Source: a bacterium
GTDB taxonomy: Bacteria > Patescibacteriota > Patescibacteriia > Patescibacteriales > JAKAJF01
Direction: 5' to 3'
Assembly: GCA_021788015.1 (NCBI GenBank)
Contig: JAJYLD010000001.1
Span: 145,581-209,580, forward strand
Length of the DNA stretch: 64,000 nucleotides
Shown in pieces: positions 1-63,438 of the stretch. The translations under genes and the position numbers were made by a program. The notes beneath the pieces were generated by a model. The model saw only the letters and a program-made list of their open reading frames with translations, was not told the origin of the DNA and did no database searches. Position 1 is the first letter of the stretch. Each line of letters begins with the position of its first letter.

Positions 1-215
1 TCAATAATGCTTTGGTTTTTCCCGGAATTTTCCGCGGGCTTCTCGACGGAAAAATTAAAACCGTGACGACGGAAATAAAAGTGGCAGCAAGTCTGGCCAT
101 CGCTTATTCGATAAAACCTACCAGGACCAAATTATTGCCTTTGGTTACGGATAAAAATGTGGCAGTGGCGGTTGCGAAGGCAATAAAAAAATCCTCTTCA
201 AAGAAGGGACTTTAA
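1..215 (+). CDS. NAD(P)-dependent malic enzyme, C-terminal fragment (5' end outside window)
   Basis: The frame is open to the window edge. Translation NNALVFPGIFRGLLDGKIK...VAVAKAIKK matches the conserved NNxLxFPGIFRGxLD block near the malic enzyme C-terminus. TAA stop at 213-215. Confidence 0.7.
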   Translation, partial: NNALVFPGIFRGLLDGKIKTVTTEIKVAASLAIAYSIKPTRTKLLPLVTDKNVAVAVAKAIKKSSSKKGL

Positions 216-7608: not shown

Positions 7609-7692
7609 TTCTAATTTTTAAATTATAATTTCTAATGCCTCCTTTTGTAATTAGATATTTTATTAGAAATTGGAAATTATAATTTAGAAATT
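7609..7692. repeat. AT-rich palindromic intergenic element (TAGAAATT family)
   Basis: AAATTATAATTTCTAAT (7620-7636) pairs with ATTAGAAATTGGAAATTATAATTT (7662-7685), directly after the pgk stop. Confidence 0.8.
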
Positions 7693-8409: not shown

Positions 8410-9669
8410 ATGAAAATAAAAAACATAATCGCTCGGGAAATTCTTGATTCAAGAGGCAACCCGACTGTGGAAGTGAAAGTAGAGCTGGACAATGGCATAG
8501 TCGCGAAAGCGAGCGTGCCGTCCGGCGCTTCGACTGGAATCCACGAAGCTTGGGAAATGCGCGACGGCGATAAAAATCGTTACGGCGGTTTGGGCGTGCT
8601 TACGGCCGTAAAAAATGTCAACACAAAAATTAAAAAAGAATTGGTCGGCATGGACGTAACCGATCAAAAGAAAATCGACGAAGCCATGATTAAATTGGAT
8701 GGAACGGAAAATAAAAGAAAACTGGGAGCGAACGCTATCTTAGGAGTTTCTCTCGCAGCAGCTCGCGCCGGCGCTATGGCCAAGAAAAAAGAATTGTACG
8801 AATATCTAGCCTCGACTTATGATTTTAAAAAGCCCGATTCGATGCCGACGCCGTCATTTAATATTTTTAATGGCGGTAAGCACGCGGATACGAATTTGGA
8901 TTTTCAGGAATTCATGATCATTCCGCTCAAAAAAACAAGCTTTGCCGAGAAAGTGAGAATGGGCGCGGAAATTTTCCATGAACTCGGTCATGTTCTAAAA
9001 AAAGCCGGTTTCGATACCGACGTCGGAAACGAAGGCGGATACGCGCCGGATATTTTTTCAAGCGTGCAGGCGATCGAATTGATCGTGGCCGCGATGATTA
9101 ACGCCGGTTACAAGCCTGGAGAAGATGTCGGCTTGGGCATTGACGTCGGTTCGTCCGTTCTTTACGACAAAGAAAAGAAAAAGTATATTTTCAAGCTCGA
9201 TCAGGCTCAATTCACAAATAAGACTCTGGTCGGACTGTATTACGAATGGTTCAGAAAATTTCCGATCGTTTCGATCGAGGACGGTTTGGCCGAAGACGAT
9301 TGGGACGGCTGGCGCGATTTAACAAAAGAACTTGGTCAAGATATTCTTCTGATCGGCGACGATTTGTTTACCACGAACGTGAACAGACTGCGCATGGGAT
9401 TACAAGAGAAAGTGGCGAACGCGATTCTGATCAAACCGAATCAGGTCGGAACTTTGACCGAAACGATGGAATGCGTCAAGCTCGCGCAAAAGCACAATTA
9501 TAAAATCATGGTTTCGCATAGGAGCGGGGAAACGACGGATGATTTTATCGCCGACTTGGCAGTCGCCGTCGGATCGGATTATATAAAATCAGGTTCTTTG
9601 TCCCGCGGCGAGAGACTGGCGAAATATAATCGGTTGATGGAAATAGAAGAGAGTCTAAAAAATTCCTAA
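8410..9669 (+). CDS. eno: enolase
   Basis: IIAREILDSRGNPTVEV, SVPSGASTG, IEDGLAEDDW, LIKPNQVGTLTE, SHRSGETTD. Confidence 0.97.
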   Translation: MKIKNIIAREILDSRGNPTVEVKVELDNGIVAKASVPSGASTGIHEAWEMRDGDKNRYGGLGVLTAVKNVNTKIKKELVGMDVTDQKKIDEAMIKLDGTENKRKLGANAILGVSLAAARAGAMAKKKELYEYLASTYDFKKPDSMPTPSFNIFNGGKHADTNLDFQEFMIIPLKKTSFAEKVRMGAEIFHELGHVLKKAGFDTDVGNEGGYAPDIFSSVQAIELIVAAMINAGYKPGEDVGLGIDVGSSVLYDKEKKKYIFKLDQAQFTNKTLVGLYYEWFRKFPIVSIEDGLAEDDWDGWRDLTKELGQDILLIGDDLFTTNVNRLRMGLQEKVANAILIKPNQVGTLTETMECVKLAQKHNYKIMVSHRSGETTDDFIADLAVAVGSDYIKSGSLSRGERLAKYNRLMEIEESLKNS

Positions 9670-9760
9670 ATTATGATTTCTAAGTTCTAATTAATTTTTA
9701 ATTTTAAAATTAGACATTTATTTTTTTTATTAGAAATTATAATTTAAAAATTAGAAATTT
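9667..9760. repeat. AT-rich palindromic intergenic element (TAGAAATT family)
   Basis: TAAATTATGATTTCTAA (9667-9683) pairs with TTAGAAATTATAATTTA (9730-9746). It overlaps the eno stop codon. Confidence 0.8.
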
Positions 9761-9764
9761 TATC

Positions 9765-11336
9765 ATGGCTGTAAAAAAACAAAAACAATCTAATAACCTT
9801 CCCTTGATTCTCGTTATCCTCGACGGTTGGGGAATAGCGGAACCGAATAGGGGCAACGCGGTTACGCTAGCGAAAACGCCGGTTATGAATCGATTGCGCG
9901 AGAGATATCCTTATACAGAACTTTGCGCCTCGGGGAATTGCGTCGGCTTGCCTCCGTTTCAGTCCGGAAACAGCGAAGCCGGGCATATGAATATCGGCGC
10001 GGGAAGACTTGTCGAGCAGGATTCGGTCAAAATCAGCAAAAGCATCAATGATGGCACGTTCTTTAAGAACGCCGCGTTTCTCGAAGCGATCAGACATGTC
10101 AAAAAGAACAAAACAAAATTGCATTTGATGGGCATGCTTTCCGAAGGGTCGAGTCCGCACAGCGATCCCGACCATATCGTTGCCTTGGTGGTCTTGGCAA
10201 AAAATTTTGGCGTTAAAGATGTTATTTTGCATTTATTTACCGATGGCCGCGATTCGCCGAAATTTGCTTCCTTAAAAATGGTAAATTTTATCGAAAAAAG
10301 TTTTAAAAACAATGAATGCGTCGGGACGATTATGGGCCGTTTTTACGCCATGGACCGAAAAAAAGAATGGGAAAGAACGGAAAAAGCGTATAACGCCCTC
10401 GTACTCGGCCAAGGAAAAAAGGCGGAAAGCGCAGAGGAAGCGATAAGCGAGAGTTATAACAGAGGCGAAACAGATGAATTTATCGAGCCTTATGTCATTA
10501 CGAAAGACGATAAAATTACTCCGCGCATCGGCGACGGCGACAGCGTCATATTTTTTAATTTAAGATCGGACCGAGCGAGGCAACTCGCGAAAGTTTTTGT
10601 CCAGAGCGATTTTAATGGAAAAAACCCCGGTTCGTTCAAAAGAAAAAAGATTTTAAAAAATTTGCGTTTCGTGGCCATGACCGATTTCGGTCCGGATTTG
10701 GACAGTATTCTCACCGCCTATCCGGCGGTCGATATTGTCGAGACCTTACCCATGGCTTTGAAAAGTCTGCGCCAATTATATATAGCCGAAACGGAAAAAT
10801 ACGCCCATGTCACATATTTTTTTAACGGCGGGTATGTGGGTACGGTCGCTGGCGAAACTCAATTTATGATTCCGTCTCCGCATGTGAAATATTATGACGA
10901 AACGCCGTGTATGAGCTCGAAGCCGCTCGCTCGGACAATCGTCGACAATGTAAAGAAAGGAAAATATGATTTTACCGTCTTGAATTTCGCCGCGCCGGAC
11001 ATGATCGGGCATACCGGCGATTTGAAAGCGGGAATAAAGTGCATTTCATGCGTGGATAAAGAGCTGGGCAAAATTGTTAACGCTTATCTCCGAAAAGGAG
11101 GAACGGTTGTAATTACGGCGGATCATGGTAATATTGAAGAGATGATTAATTTAAAAACGGGAGAAGTCGATACCGAGCATTCGACAAACCCCGTGCCGTT
11201 TTTAGTTGTAAACGATAAAATGAAAAAAATGAAATTGAAAAAAAATGGCAGTTTGTCCGATGTCGCGCCTACGATTCTAGAATTGTTGGGTGTAAAAAAA
11301 CCCAAGGAAATGACGGGAAGGAGCCTTATAAAATAA
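9765..11336 (+). CDS. gpmI: 2,3-bisphosphoglycerate-independent phosphoglycerate mutase, paralog 1
   Basis: LDGWG, GNSEAGHMNIGAGR, TDGRDS, ETEKYAHVTYFFNGG, NFAAPDMIGHTG, ITADHGN. Confidence 0.93.
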   Translation: MAVKKQKQSNNLPLILVILDGWGIAEPNRGNAVTLAKTPVMNRLRERYPYTELCASGNCVGLPPFQSGNSEAGHMNIGAGRLVEQDSVKISKSINDGTFFKNAAFLEAIRHVKKNKTKLHLMGMLSEGSSPHSDPDHIVALVVLAKNFGVKDVILHLFTDGRDSPKFASLKMVNFIEKSFKNNECVGTIMGRFYAMDRKKEWERTEKAYNALVLGQGKKAESAEEAISESYNRGETDEFIEPYVITKDDKITPRIGDGDSVIFFNLRSDRARQLAKVFVQSDFNGKNPGSFKRKKILKNLRFVAMTDFGPDLDSILTAYPAVDIVETLPMALKSLRQLYIAETEKYAHVTYFFNGGYVGTVAGETQFMIPSPHVKYYDETPCMSSKPLARTIVDNVKKGKYDFTVLNFAAPDMIGHTGDLKAGIKCISCVDKELGKIVNAYLRKGGTVVITADHGNIEEMINLKTGEVDTEHSTNPVPFLVVNDKMKKMKLKKNGSLSDVAPTILELLGVKKPKEMTGRSLIK

Positions 11337-11342
11337 TTATGA

Positions 11343-11575
11343 GTCCCGTTAGAAGCCGCGATCGCTTCAATGGGAATTGGTTAAATTTACAGGAGGACTT
11401 TAATAGCTTATGCAGGTTTATGCAATCAATTTCTTGATCGCGATCCCGATATTACAAATCCTGTCGGATTTGGCTACGGGACAAGTTCTATCGCACAAAA
11501 CTTATTTTTAACCACGTCTCGCCCCGTAGTCACCGAGTTTACGAGGTGTACTACCGGGGTCTGCTTCTAACGGGA
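11343..11575 (+). other. about 230-nt GC-richer structured element closed by a 12-13-bp helix (candidate ncRNA, regulatory leader or MITE)
   Basis: CCCGTTAGAAGC (11344-11355) is the exact reverse complement of GCTTCTAACGGG (11563-11574). Internal hairpins include CGCGATC/GATCGCG, AAATCC-TGTC-GGATTT, TCCCG/CGGGA and CCCCGTAGT...ACTACCGGGG. The 3' arm abuts the ATG of the next gene. Confidence 0.45.
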
Positions 11576-13149
11576 TGAACAAAACTTCAAATAGACCAAA
11601 GCCAGTCGTTCTAATCGTATTGGACGGTTGGGGCGTTACCCAGCCTTATAGCGGCAATGCCATAACCCAGGCAAATACGCCGGTTATGAAAGAGCTGCTT
11701 TCAAAATATCCATCCATGACCATAATGGCCGCCGGAGAGGCGGTCGGTTTGCCCTGGGGAGAAAACGGTAACAGTGAAGTCGGCCACCTTAATCTCGGAC
11801 TGGGCCGAATTTTGTATCAAGACCTGCCTCGAATCAATAAGGCCATAAGCGACAATTCAATTTATGAAAATAAAATTTTAAATAAAGCTATCGAACATGT
11901 CGAAAAAAATAATTCTAAATTGCATTATATCGGGCTCTTGTCCAATGGCGGCGTACACGCCTCAATAGAACATCTTCAGGCGCTTTTGTTTTTCGCCAAA
12001 GAAAAAAAAGTTAAAGATGTTTATGTGCATGTCATTTTGGACGGCCGCGACACCCTTTACAATAGCGGCATCAATTTCGTTAAGGATATCGAAAGATTTT
12101 TTAAAGAATACGGAGTGGGGAAAATTGCGACCATTTCCGGACGTTTTTATGCCATGGATCGGGATAATCATTGGGACAGAGTTGAAAAAGCTTATAAGGC
12201 TATGACCAAGGGCGAGGGGAATAAGGCTGATACGGCGGAGAGCGCCATTGAAGAGAGCTACGGGAAAAAAATTTACGACGAGGAATTTGTGCCAACGGTT
12301 ATCGATGAAAATGGTTTGGTCGGAAACGGAGATGCTGTCGTTTTTTTTAATTTTCGGCCCGATCGCGCTCGCCAACTTACAAAAGCTTTTGTTCTTTCCG
12401 ATTTCGACAAGTTCGAAAGGAAAAAAATAAAAGATTTGGAATTCGCGACATTCACCGAATACGAAAATGGCTTGCCGGTCGATATCGTATTTGAACCGGA
12501 AGTGATAAGTAACACTTTGGGAGAGGTCATTTCAAAAGAAGGCTTAAAGCAGCTTCGTATCGCCGAAACGGAAAAATACGCCCACGTCACTTACTTTTTT
12601 AACGGCGGCAAAGAAACAAAGTCGGAAGGGGAAGAACATGCCCTTATTCCTTCGCCGCATGTGGAAAGTTACGATTTGAAGCCGGAAATGTCCGCCTTCG
12701 AATTAACAGATAGAGTTTTAAAGGAAATTGCCAAAAATGAATTTGATTTTATTCTCATAAATTTCGCCAATGCCGATATGGTCGGCCATACGGGCAATAT
12801 GAAGGCGACAATCAAAGCCGTGGAATCGATCGATAAATGCTTGGGAAAAATCACTAAAGCGGTTTTGGCGAAAGGCGGTGTGATTTTGATTACGGCGGAT
12901 CATGGAAACGCGGAAGTGGTTTTTAATATGCAAACGGGAACGATAGATAAAGAGCATTCCGCCAATCCCGTACTGTTCATCGTTATTGGAAATGAATTTG
13001 AAGGAAAAAATTTGGGCGGCCAGGACGCGCCCGGCGGAGATTTGAGCTTGCTTCAGCCGCAGGGTATTTTATCCGACGTGGCCCCGACCGTTTTAAAACT
13101 TATGGGCATACCGAAACCGAGGGAGATGACGGGAAGATCGCTGATTTAA
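11575..13149 (+). CDS. gpmI: 2,3-bisphosphoglycerate-independent phosphoglycerate mutase, paralog 2
   Basis: LDGWG, GNSEVGHLNLGLGR, LDGRDT, ETEKYAHVTYFFNGG, NFANADMVGHTG, ITADHGN. Clearly divergent from paralog 1. Confidence 0.93.
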   Translation: MNKTSNRPKPVVLIVLDGWGVTQPYSGNAITQANTPVMKELLSKYPSMTIMAAGEAVGLPWGENGNSEVGHLNLGLGRILYQDLPRINKAISDNSIYENKILNKAIEHVEKNNSKLHYIGLLSNGGVHASIEHLQALLFFAKEKKVKDVYVHVILDGRDTLYNSGINFVKDIERFFKEYGVGKIATISGRFYAMDRDNHWDRVEKAYKAMTKGEGNKADTAESAIEESYGKKIYDEEFVPTVIDENGLVGNGDAVVFFNFRPDRARQLTKAFVLSDFDKFERKKIKDLEFATFTEYENGLPVDIVFEPEVISNTLGEVISKEGLKQLRIAETEKYAHVTYFFNGGKETKSEGEEHALIPSPHVESYDLKPEMSAFELTDRVLKEIAKNEFDFILINFANADMVGHTGNMKATIKAVESIDKCLGKITKAVLAKGGVILITADHGNAEVVFNMQTGTIDKEHSANPVLFIVIGNEFEGKNLGGQDAPGGDLSLLQPQGILSDVAPTVLKLMGIPKPREMTGRSLI

Positions 13150-15939: not shown

Positions 15940-16068
15940 GCCACTGTAGCTCAGTCGGGTAGAGCACCTCTGAAGGTAATCTTTCTGACTGGGCAAGCGC
16001 TGGCTCGGATTAGAAAAAATCCTTCATGAAAGAGGGGGTCGCGGGTTCAATTCCCGTCGGTGGCTCCA
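15940..16068 (+). tRNA. tRNA gene interrupted in the anticodon loop (Gly-like body, anticodon unresolved)
   Basis: Acceptor GCCACTG/CGGTGGC, D arm GCTC-AGTCGGGTA-GAGC, variable GGGTC, T arm GCGGG-TTCAATT-CCCGT, encoded TCCA. The anticodon stem halves CCTCT (15967-15971) and AGAGG (16031-16035) are separated by 59 nt instead of 7. Confidence 0.7.
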
Positions 16069-21354: not shown

Positions 21355-21488
21355 GAATTTCTAATTTCTAAATTCTCAATCAGACATAAATTCAAAAAAT
21401 ATAAATCCAAATGATCAAAACGTTTTGAATTTTTAATTCTGTCATTTGATATCGTTTAGAAATTAGATATTATGATTTAGGATTTTTG
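21355..21488. repeat. AT-rich palindromic intergenic element (same family as the RNase P insertions)
   Basis: The right end TTGATATCGTTTAGAAATTAGATATTATGATTTAGGATTT parallels TTGATATTGTTTAGTATTTAGAATTTAGGATTT in 62850-63020. There is an inner AAATTCAAAA...TTTTGAATTT palindrome. Confidence 0.7.
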
Positions 21489-29038: not shown

Positions 29039-29073
29039 TTTTTTTCTGGATTCCCGCCTGCGCGGGAATGACA
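29039..29073. repeat. GAATGACA-family intercistronic hairpin
   Basis: TTTTTTTCTGGATTCCCGCCTGCGCGGGAATGACA, with stem ATTCCCGC/GCGGGAAT. Ends 5 nt before the next ATG. Confidence 0.8.
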
Positions 29074-29078
29074 AAGAT

Positions 29079-38773: not shown

Positions 38774-38809
38774 TTTTTTTCTGGATCCCGGATCAGGTTC
38801 GGGATGACA
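38774..38809. repeat. GAATGACA-family intercistronic hairpin
   Basis: TTTTTTTCTGGATCCCGGATCAGGTTCGGGATGACA, with stem ATCCCG/CGGGAT. Confidence 0.75.
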
Positions 38810-38814
38810 AAAAT

Positions 38815-40239: not shown

Positions 40240-40274
40240 TTTTTTTCTGGATTCCCGCCTGCGCGGGAATGACA
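40240..40274. repeat. GAATGACA-family intercistronic hairpin
   Basis: Identical to 29039-29073 (TTTTTTTCTGGATTCCCGCCTGCGCGGGAATGACA). Confidence 0.8.
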
Positions 40275-41698: not shown

Positions 41699-41817
41699 AT
41701 AAATTTAAAATTTTTAATTTTGTAATTTTTAAATAACATTCTAATTTTTAATTTCTAAGTTTAAAAATTTAGTCATTAAAAATTGTTTGGAAATTAAAAA
41801 TTATAAAATTGAAAATT
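41699..41817. repeat. AT-rich palindromic intergenic element
   Basis: Arms AATTTTTAATTTTGTAATTTTTAA and TTGGAAATTAAAAATTATAAAATTGAAAATT. The core TTAAAAATTTAGTCATTAAAAATTGTTT is shared with 48330-48442. Confidence 0.75.
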
Positions 41818-45914: not shown

Positions 45915-46030
45915 TTAAATGTCTAAATTGTAATTTCTAATTTCTAATAAAATGTTCAATGACAAATTTTAAAATTTAGATACTTTGAAATTTTATTGGA
46001 AATTATAATTTAGAAATTAGAAAATTTTTA
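45915..46030. repeat. AT-rich palindromic intergenic element (TAGAAATT family)
   Basis: TCTAAATTGTAATTTCTAATTTCTAAT (45922-45948) pairs with ATTGGAAATTATAATTTAGAAATTAGAAAA (45996-46024). Confidence 0.8.
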
Positions 46031-48329: not shown

Positions 48330-48442
48330 AATTTTTTAATTTTATAATTTTAAAATAATGTCCCAATTTTTAATGACTAAATTTATTTAAAAATTTAGTC
48401 ATTAAAAATTGTTTAAAAATTAAAAATTAAGAATTTAAAATT
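48330..48442. repeat. AT-rich palindromic intergenic element
   Basis: Perfect inner inverted repeat CAATTTTTAATGACTAAATTT / AAATTTAGTCATTAAAAATTG, flanked by AT-rich arms. Confidence 0.8.
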
Positions 48443-62668: not shown

Positions 62669-62849
62669 CAAATCGTAAAATGTTCCTTAAATTTTATTAA
62701 AATCAAGGTAAGCGGATGGCCGCCCCGGTTTGCCGGGGAGGAAAGTCCGGACTTCTCTCGATTTTCAAATCGAGAAAGCGGCAGTGGGTAACGCCCACCG
62801 CTACGATAGCGATATCGGAGTAGGGAAAGTGCCACAGAGACAATACTAA

Positions 62850-63020
62850 CCAGCGCGGAGCACTGGAAATTCTAAGCACTAATATCTAAATCCTAAACGA
62901 ATTTCAAAATTAAATGTTCAAAATCTAAAACTGTTTTGAATTTATAATTTTGATTATTTGATATTGTTTAGTATTTAGAATTTAGGATTTGGGGTTTCCA
63001 TTGCTCTGCGGTGGCAAAAG
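62850..63020 (+). repeat. 171-nt hairpin insertion in RNase P RNA (P12 position)
   Basis: GC stem CCAGCGCGGAGCACTGG / CCATTGCTCTGCGGTGG encloses an AT-rich palindrome. Identical to 63137-63307 except for one base. Confidence 0.9.
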
Positions 63021-63136
63021 GTGAAAAGTCTTCAGGTGTTATTGGTTGATTAGGATATCCGATTGACTAATAGCTACTGAAATCGCACCCGCGCGAGCGG
63101 AATGCGCGGCAAACCCTGCCTGAAGCAAGAGCAAAG

Positions 63137-63307
63137 CCAGCGCGGAGCACTGGAAATTCTAAGCACTAATATCTAAATCCTAAACGAATTTCAAAATTAA
63201 ATGTTCAAAATCTAAAACTGTTTTGAATTTATAATTTTGATTATTTGATATTGTTTAGTATTTAGAATTTAGGATTTGGGGTTTCCATTGCTCCGCGGTG
63301 GCAAAAG
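63137..63307 (+). repeat. 171-nt hairpin insertion in RNase P RNA (P15-P17 position)
   Basis: Second copy of the same 171-nt sequence, located between AGCAAGAGCAAAG and TGGCTCGCTTGA. Confidence 0.9.
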
Positions 63308-63438
63308 TGGCTCGCTTGATTCCGAAGGTAACTTCGGAGCCAGATAGATGGCCATCGCCCCCCCAAAGGGTACAGAATCCGGCTTACAGCTTGCCCTGAT
63401 TTTAATAAAATTTAAGATTAATAGATTAATCCCCATTT

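Follow-up and report, generated by a model that had tools for sequence, protein, structure and literature searches.

Among the described systems closest to the element reported here, the Correia elements of Neisseria have TA as their target-site duplication. Members of the IS1380 family (for example ISEcp1) have termini that start with CC, inverted repeats of about 14-15 bp and duplications of 4-5 bp, and ISEcp1 carries an outward promoter. Y1 transposases (IS200/IS605, RAYT) insert beside a fixed short target without duplicating it. REP/REPIN elements, to our knowledge, make no variable target-site duplications. In phage T4, the split ribosome-binding sites of genes 38 and 25 are bridged by a hairpin. 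MITEs, which are non-autonomous DNA transposons, have been defined in general terms (PMC11602168, PMC3184786). Repeats that provide a promoter, a ribosome-binding site as well as an ATG directly upstream of genes are known from Neisseria (REP2) and Borrelia (IR-A and IR-B) (PMC3184786; Morelle et al. 2003 cited there).

We analyzed a stretch of 64,000 nucleotides, called the window here, in which an element of 232 nt (11344-11575) fills most of the spacer between two gpmI genes. In all likelihood, this spacer is a MITE whose family is spread through Patescibacteria, and not a dedicated regulator of gpmI.

The spacer between the gpmI genes

The products of gpmI-1 and gpmI-2 are both full-length cofactor-independent phosphoglycerate mutases, and they are 47% identical. 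The locus is organized as follows.

9765..11336, + strand: upstream paralogue gpmI-1 (523 aa), with 7 nt between its stop codon and the element
11339..11341, + strand: upstream "decoy" ATG, opening a 32-codon uORF (11339-11437) that runs into the element
11340..11343, no strand: left copy of the target-site duplication, TGAG, with one mismatch to the right copy
11344..11356, no strand: left terminal inverted repeat TCCCGTTAGAAGC, from the comparison of termini across the family
11357..11442, no strand: remainder of the outer (short-MITE) body, with stem P2 around a domain of ~70 nt that differs between copies
11443..11562, no strand: 120-nt inner module (P3/P3a, linker, P4), with 80-88% identical copies elsewhere
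11563..11575, no strand: right terminal inverted repeat GCTTCTAACGGGA, ending on the A of the gpmI-2 start codon
11575..13149, + strand: gpmI-2, an intact cofactor-independent phosphoglycerate mutase gene (524 aa); its N-terminus agrees with orthologues
11576..11579, no strand: right copy of the target-site duplication, TGAA, which with base 11575 restores ATGAA

The arms of the inverted repeat pair perfectly (13/13) and are separated by 206 nt. At 45% G+C, the element exceeds the window (39%) and also the other spacers, which lie mostly at 9-30% although a few reach 40-55%. Its longest ORFs span 32-33 codons, leaving it no coding capacity. The predicted fold consists of a terminal stem around several hairpins, and the A of the gpmI-2 AUG and the preceding 12 nt lie within that stem. 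This fold beats those of shuffled sequences both as RNA (z = -5.05 on the + strand and -5.96 on the - strand) and as DNA (z = -6.27). An earlier note on this DNA had described a GC-rich spacer between gpmI paralogues, bounded by an inverted repeat whose 3' arm ends on the start codon, with a series of hairpins inside, and our analysis bears out all of this. The note had also seen no SD; that is true for gpmI-2 but is not special, as almost no gene in the window has one.

Taken alone, a single 13-nt inverted repeat is weak evidence and poor proof of an element. Inverted repeats of at least 13 nt within 300 nt occur at seven loci in the window, compared with a block-shuffle mean of 0.5 hits, and the remaining loci are mostly AT-rich intergenic palindromes. 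Chance is excluded by 16 other contigs, described below, in which this pair of termini returns at the same spacing. A promoter and terminator scan of the window copy predicted nothing inside the element, and blastn of the element against a phage database returned no match. Viral contigs scanned with ATCCCGTTAGAAGC gave 83 single hits, which is chance level, and none was paired at the spacing of the element.

The operon eno-gpmI-gpmI (window 8410-13149) is kept in Falkowbacteria-like relatives (loci L115-L119), and both diverged gpmI paralogues are evidently maintained across relatives. The best named relatives of gpmI-2 come from Candidatus Falkowbacteria and other Patescibacteria, with at most 75% identity. 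In five relatives' loci (gpmI-2 identity 72-75%), the element is missing between the gpmI genes, a comparison between different species and not sister strains. The earlier note had proposed comparing homologous spacers, which turn out to offer no counterpart: in the relatives they measure 38 nt (L115), ~0 nt (L116) and 76-77 nt (L117-L119), and they are AT-rich and unrelated to the element. The gpmI-2 start reads ATGAACAAACAAGATTCAAATAGG in the closest relative, L115, and ATGAACAAAACTTCAAATAGA in the window, both of the ATGAAC type. This match indicates that the ATG at 11575 is the orthologous gpmI-2 start. Judged from these sequences, the tandem arrangement of gpmI is of old date, and the element was inserted only in the lineage of the window. 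Because the tandem is old and conserved in relatives, the same comparison indicates that the insertion is unconnected with the gpmI duplication.

The decoy ATG at 11339 is probably the original gpmI-2 start codon, left 5' of the insertion. The junction before insertion would have been TAA-TT-ATGAAC, and an empty allele would read TAATTATGAAC. This state is a reconstruction, since the window spacer retains only 7 nt to the left of the element compared with 38-77 nt in most relatives. The target-site duplication of the window copy is imperfect, with three of four positions matching (TGAG/TGAA).

ERZ27233565, an ENA assembly of the same population, breaks inside the element (contigs L001 and L002). 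Of these two contigs, one stops at 11484 and the other begins at 11419, so that they share 66 nt, and each is identical to the window where it covers it. Repeats are the typical cause of such breaks in de Bruijn assembly, and this break hints at more copies. From the source organism we have one copy, within the searched 64-kb window. Wherever the element is covered, both assemblies have it in the same orientation.

The window holds other features of note. AT-rich intergenic palindromes stand at 7619-7686, 21360-21467, 45934-46023, 41742-41803 and 48364-48411, with the sequences AATTTCTAATTTCTAA...TTAGAAATTAGAAATT and TTTTTAATGACTAAATTT...AAATTTAGTCATTAAAAA; these may be terminators or a second repeat family. 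A repeat of ~35 nt, TTTTTTTCTGGATTCCCGCCTGCGCGGGAATGACA, occurs at 29039-29078, 38774-38814 and 40240-40268, one copy being diverged. Within one gene cluster, it forms a GC hairpin that precedes three start codons by 0-9 nt and in one instance directly abuts the ATG. At 15940-16065 (+) lies a tRNA gene (Rfam tRNA, 48 bits) that is 126 nt long and was not called by ARAGORN. By eye, ~55-60 nt are inserted between the two halves of its anticodon stem (CCTCT / AGAGG), a length too small for a group I intron of the kind that bacterial tRNAs usually carry. The RNase P RNA at 62704-63402 (+; class A, 144 bits) measures 699 nt against a model of 367 positions, with three large expansions: ~190 nt of A/T-rich sequence in one hairpin, plus 47 and 168 nt.

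The family in Patescibacteria

We scanned one genome per species, a set that does not include the source genome, for the pattern CCCGTTAGAAGC-N(190-220)-GCTTCTAACGGG. The two 12-nt termini were found 190-220 nt apart in 16 contigs, nearly all of them from Patescibacteria MAGs (Paceibacterota, Sungiibacteriota, Saccharibacteria, Azambacteria and unclassified). Elements with the family-type termini (YCCCGTTAGAAGC...GCTTCTAACGGGR) or close variants (...GAAAT, ...GAGRC and others) number at least 33 and stand at unrelated loci; they measure 79-243 nt, some of them 79-130 nt and others 217-243 nt. Several genomes hold more than one copy: H14-bin029_1 has the element on four contigs, and L008, L012 and L104 have 3-4 copies each, the number being four in both L008 and L012. 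Tandem elements in L005, L007, L008 and L012 are spaced by exactly the duplicated 4-5 bp, nested elements occur in L009, L014 and L016, and L011 contains a 27-nt mini-hairpin of the family. Among 13 metagenome hits to the core pattern, five (L102, L105, L106, L108 and L113) are unrelated chance matches. In L017 (1248-1461), a contig binned as Planctomycetaceae, the termini lie inside a perfect long palindrome that extends into both flanks; this is probably an assembly artefact or a mis-binned fragment.

Target-site duplications were scored with termini of 13 bp, the outermost pair being T/A or C/G. Exact duplications of 4 bp flank 20/33 elements and exact duplications of 5 bp flank 4/33, for a sum of 24/33. 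The duplicated sequence varies by site (TGAA, TGGA, TGCA, TGCG, CTTG, TTGA, TCAA, TAAA, CTCG, CTCA, CCTG and others).

The small size without coding sequence, the terminal inverted repeats, the variable duplications, the several copies per genome elsewhere, the nesting and the presence or absence of the element at orthologous sites together identify the spacer as a MITE. The earlier note had offered, as one reading, a MITE-like element that landed between duplicated genes. The MITE-like part stands on the copies, the duplications, the tandem and nested arrangements and the empty sites, whereas the gene duplication is irrelevant to the insertion. The further copies that such a reading predicts lie in other genomes, the 64-kb window having just the one. 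By the tested criteria, with multiple dispersed copies seen in other genomes, the element is a MITE, except that a cognate autonomous element with a transposase was not found in the fetched loci. In these loci, a small sample, no pair of termini stood 0.7-3 kb apart, and no transposase and no ORF or protein recurred across unrelated loci. We infer both the transposase family and a cut-and-paste mechanism.

Alignment of the copies shows a composite build for the window copy, an outer element of ~110 nt combined with a 120-nt inner hairpin module, because each part also occurs alone. The outer body is found without the inner module at L012:4518-4629 (112 nt), where it adjoins long copies. The inner module is found without outer termini and with other flanks at L104:5835-5954, between convergent genes; it has no 4-bp duplication of its own. 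The composite moves as a unit. In the consensus fold, the 13-bp terminal stem (P1) is followed by P2, in which CGCGATC (11357-11363) pairs with GATCGCG (11436-11442) and closes the variable domain. The module then contributes hairpin P3/P3a (11445-11480), an A/T-rich linker (11481-11521) and the long hairpin P4 (11522-11559), and it contains four copies of a CCCG(N)TAG / CTA(N)CGGG motif resembling the termini.

We compared the window copy with copies from Sungiibacteriota and metagenomes (L015, L110/111/114, two in L012, L004, L109/L103, L107/L112 and, more distantly, L003). They agree with it at 80-88% identity over the left 21 nt and the right ~140 nt, and the ~70 nt in the middle vary freely. 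The inner module by itself is 80-88% identical to the copies in L015, L012, L004, L109, L110 and L107. Before bipA, at L107 6321-6564 and L112 8503-8746, the 120-nt module and the right terminus are present without a left terminus, and a TATAAT-like box lies just upstream of this truncated element.

The earlier note had suggested a covariation test, and on family copies it gives a signal. Double changes occur at nine pairs compared with 1.3 in shuffles, with 0/500 shuffles reaching the observed value and slid controls giving 0-6 pairs. The covarying pairs lie in P3a and P4, and the changes stem from three divergent copies. Mismatches of the G.T and A.C types are equally common (7 and 5, respectively), with no strand preference. 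Therefore, the fold cannot be assigned to sense RNA over DNA.

These data are consistent with the following course of events. A transposase supplied in trans would have recognized the termini and made a 4-bp staggered cut at TAA-TT-A|TGAA-C between the gpmI genes; across the family, the cuts of such a trans-acting transposase would be staggered by 4-5 bp. Repair would have duplicated TGAA, which now reads TGAG/TGAA. As the element ends in A, the right junction would have been rebuilt as ATGAAC, and the old ATG would have stayed upstream as a decoy. The element would be transcribed within the eno-gpmI-gpmI mRNA, where the 13-bp terminal stem and the internal hairpins may form a compact domain that draws both flanks together. 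In such a model, P1 would place native upstream sequence next to the AUG, which may underlie tolerance of the insertion. The folded element presumably lets translation of gpmI-2 continue in a host with SD-independent starts.

Start codons, orientation and rival explanations

At ~15 independent sites, a long ORF begins with an ATG made up of the element's last base and the two bases that follow it. The sites are as follows.

Window: gpmI-2
L004, two sites: RNase H-like protein and beta-CASP RNase
L008, three sites: membrane protein, IF-3 and nucleotidyltransferase
L012: O-antigen-ligase-like protein, behind three tandem copies
L013: YebC and RuvC
L107/L112: BipA
L104: HAD hydrolase
L003; L009; L015 and metagenome counterparts; L109/L103: further start-codon sites

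The element supplies only the A of the ATG, and the TG comes from the duplicated target. In nine matched products the Pfam domains start at residues 1-22, which indicates that the ORF starts are true N-termini. The window contains 45 ATGs at gene starts and 322 other intergenic ATGs (~7x commoner); for ATGAA the numbers are 23 and 41. All ~14 ATG-flanked insertions are on gene starts, which has a probability of 0.36^14 (~6e-7) under the most generous null, in which every intragenic insertion is assumed lost. Some nine other insertions of the family lie away from ATGs, in spacers or ambiguous positions.

Orientation was examined in the subfamily that carries CGCGRTC beside the left terminus, to which the window copy belongs. 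All ten of its ATG-abutting insertions share one orientation, with the P2/variable side distal and the module side beside the ATG (two-sided binomial P ~0.002). The gene was verified in nine of these, and in L006 it runs off the contig. The sole oppositely placed member, L010, is not at an ATG.

The old ATG survives upstream at most sites and, as a decoy, begins a uORF. Where these uORFs end is inconsistent, and in only 3/10 cases is it beside the real ATG. In L003 (2868-3115), the decoy uORF crosses the whole 243-nt element (80 codons) and meets its stop, a TAA within the right terminus, 4 nt ahead of the real ATG. At L008:581-659 and L104:4956-5076, the uORF stop overlaps the real start (ATGA).

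Gene leaders in the window are A/T-rich (for example AAAAAT-ATG-AAA) and almost devoid of SD motifs, about half of the genes begin with ATGAA, and nearly all lie on the + strand. A GC-rich, structured sequence directly before an ATG is abnormal here. Exact placement on start codons in a strict orientation is not ordinary for a passive MITE, and the bias may mean that the element has a function beyond being tolerated. Part of the pattern could arise from some preference for T(G)NA-like targets beside AT-rich DNA, given that in these genomes the TG met first behind an AT-rich leader usually belongs to the start codon. Selection would then have kept those insertions that rebuild an intact ATG and leave the gene expressible. 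The orientation bias would need a further factor, either a requirement at the RNA or promoter level or a strand-specific mechanism of insertion.

One such factor would be that the MITE is kept as a portable 5' leader, a tentative proposal that extends the transposon explanation and does not exclude it. By analogy with known repeats, a mobile cassette of this kind would, in the orientation seen here, bring along an outward promoter, or else a structure through which SD-independent initiation is enabled or regulated at the ATG that it helps to form. The abutted start codons include those of housekeeping genes that must stay expressed, and the checked sites are gene starts even though other intergenic ATGs are far commoner. 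The conserved 120-nt module lies next to the ATG in all ten ATG-abutting insertions of the oriented subfamily, and before bipA it persists with the right terminus though the left one is gone. With relaxed settings, a scan that took in all copies finds weak promoter-like hexamers within the module of most of them (GGGACA-17..19-TATTAT as well as TTGGCT-17-TATACT). However, these matches are weak (8-9/12), the sequence in which they lie is A/T-rich, and not one of them passes in the window copy. The presence of the inner module between convergent genes, which have no need of a leader, also speaks against a leader, as do the insertions away from start codons, the inconsistent uORF ends and the lack of a sense-strand signature in the pairing. 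A precedent for repeats placed upstream of genes exists in REP2 and the Borrelia IR repeats (PMC3184786). In its full form, the proposal would make these elements mobile structured 5'-leader cassettes of Patescibacteria that are targeted to start codons, or selectively retained there, in one orientation, and that use their fold or an internal promoter to enable or tune the SD-independent translation of the genes on which they land. We consider this full form doubtful.

If instead a Y1 single-strand transposase (RAYT or IS200/IS605-type) and not a DDE enzyme had moved a REP/REPIN-like repeat, the orientation bias would reflect strand-specific insertion relative to replication. The genes of the window lie nearly all on one strand, so that gene orientation and replication orientation are inseparable there. 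The hairpin units with CCCG(N)TAG / CTA(N)CGGG, down to the mini-hairpin in L011, and compensatory changes without strand preference, as expected of DNA hairpins, would also suit such an origin. We nevertheless find it improbable: the 4-5-bp duplications vary among sites, the terminal inverted repeats are genuine, and no RAYT gene was seen in the loci examined.

The earlier note had put forward a cis-regulatory or processing RNA that sequesters the gpmI-2 start and, separately, a free-standing small RNA. The strong fold, with the start codon drawn into the terminal stem, and the covariation of some hairpins would fit an RNA. The gpmI-2 regulator is not supported, because the orthologous spacer lacks the element in five relatives' loci and because the same element stands before genes of unrelated kinds; a generic influence on how any downstream gene is translated is possible. 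Neither RNA finds support in Rfam, where the region at E<=10 and the whole window at the gathering threshold gave no family for the element in the scan that the earlier note had suggested. Moreover, no promoter or terminator is predicted in the window copy, and the structure is equally good on either strand. Taken together, a dedicated gpmI-2 RNA or a small RNA gene is very improbable. The chance of an inverton, or of a fortuitous inverted repeat, is close to negligible. An inverted repeat flanking ~200 bp before a gene, and an independent assembly that breaks inside it, would suit an inverton, but dozens of copies stand at unrelated sites with target-site duplications, and no site was seen with an allele in the opposite orientation. 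The contig ends are also not symmetric at the repeat boundaries, contrary to the geometry of inversion. A fortuitous repeat is excluded by the recurrence of the termini.

Other candidates were rejected. For a cyanobacterial HIP1 origin, only 5 copies of GCGATCGC are present in 64 kb. Integron attC, retron msr-msd, group I intron, IS200/IS605 ends and bridge/omega RNA were dropped, because there is no adjacent protein gene, the order of core sites is wrong or variable duplications do not fit.

Significance and comparison with known systems

The reading that we prefer, a MITE insertion, has several consequences. Our literature search found no paper that links MITEs to CPR / Patescibacteria, and the terminal sequence appeared only as chance matches in unrelated papers; with no prior description found of such elements in this group or of these termini, this would be a new MITE family. 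Patescibacteria genomes are small and gene-dense. The right 140 nt of the element are 80-88% identical to Sungiibacteriota copies, whereas the closest gpmI-2 proteins found are only 75% identical. A family that crosses CPR lineages at this level of identity marks horizontal flow of DNA between these organisms. It would also account for contig breaks in CPR metagenome assemblies, and it is likely to mislead the prediction of gene starts and ncRNAs. It is unusual for an element to sit exactly, and in one orientation, on the start codons of housekeeping genes; if this reflects function, it would give a handle on SD-less translation initiation. Should the leader-cassette proposal be true, the element would be a transposable unit of gene-expression control in minimal genomes.

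In general build, the element resembles the Neisseria Correia elements (CREE), pneumococcal RUP and enterobacterial ERIC, which are non-coding sequences of ~80-240 bp with terminal inverted repeats. Like them, it has a target-site duplication and belongs to a family of many copies, and it is predicted to be co-transcribed with its neighbours and to give a strongly folding transcript. It differs from them in its unrelated terminal sequence, its duplication of 4-5 bp and its Patescibacteria hosts. Further differences are the frequent composite or nested build, the exact start-codon position of roughly half the insertions and, in the subfamily of the window, the use of one orientation. With REP/REPIN and RAYT, the family shares abundant short GC-rich palindromic units in tandem and inverted clusters; unlike REP/REPIN, it has variable target-site duplications in 24/33 copies. 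The likeness to IS1380 lies in the CC ends and the 4-5-bp duplication and is best taken as a lead only; unlike in that family, the fetched loci showed neither a transposase gene nor a full-length element that has these termini.

At the level of function, an analogy with the split sites of phage T4 is possible, in that a stable stem may set an upstream leader beside the start codon. In contrast to T4, the insert is far larger (232 nt) and the host lacks SD motifs. By analogy, the nearest parallel in behaviour would be the Neisseria REP2 and Borrelia IR repeats, which are likewise repeats of 120-180 bp with internal stem-loops that sit just upstream of genes and contribute the start ATG. REP2 has a recognizable promoter and RBS, and both REP2 and the Borrelia repeats lack terminal inverted repeats (PMC3184786). 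The element between the gpmI genes, in contrast, has no convincing promoter or RBS and supplies only the A of the ATG, but it is bounded by clear inverted-repeat termini and duplications.
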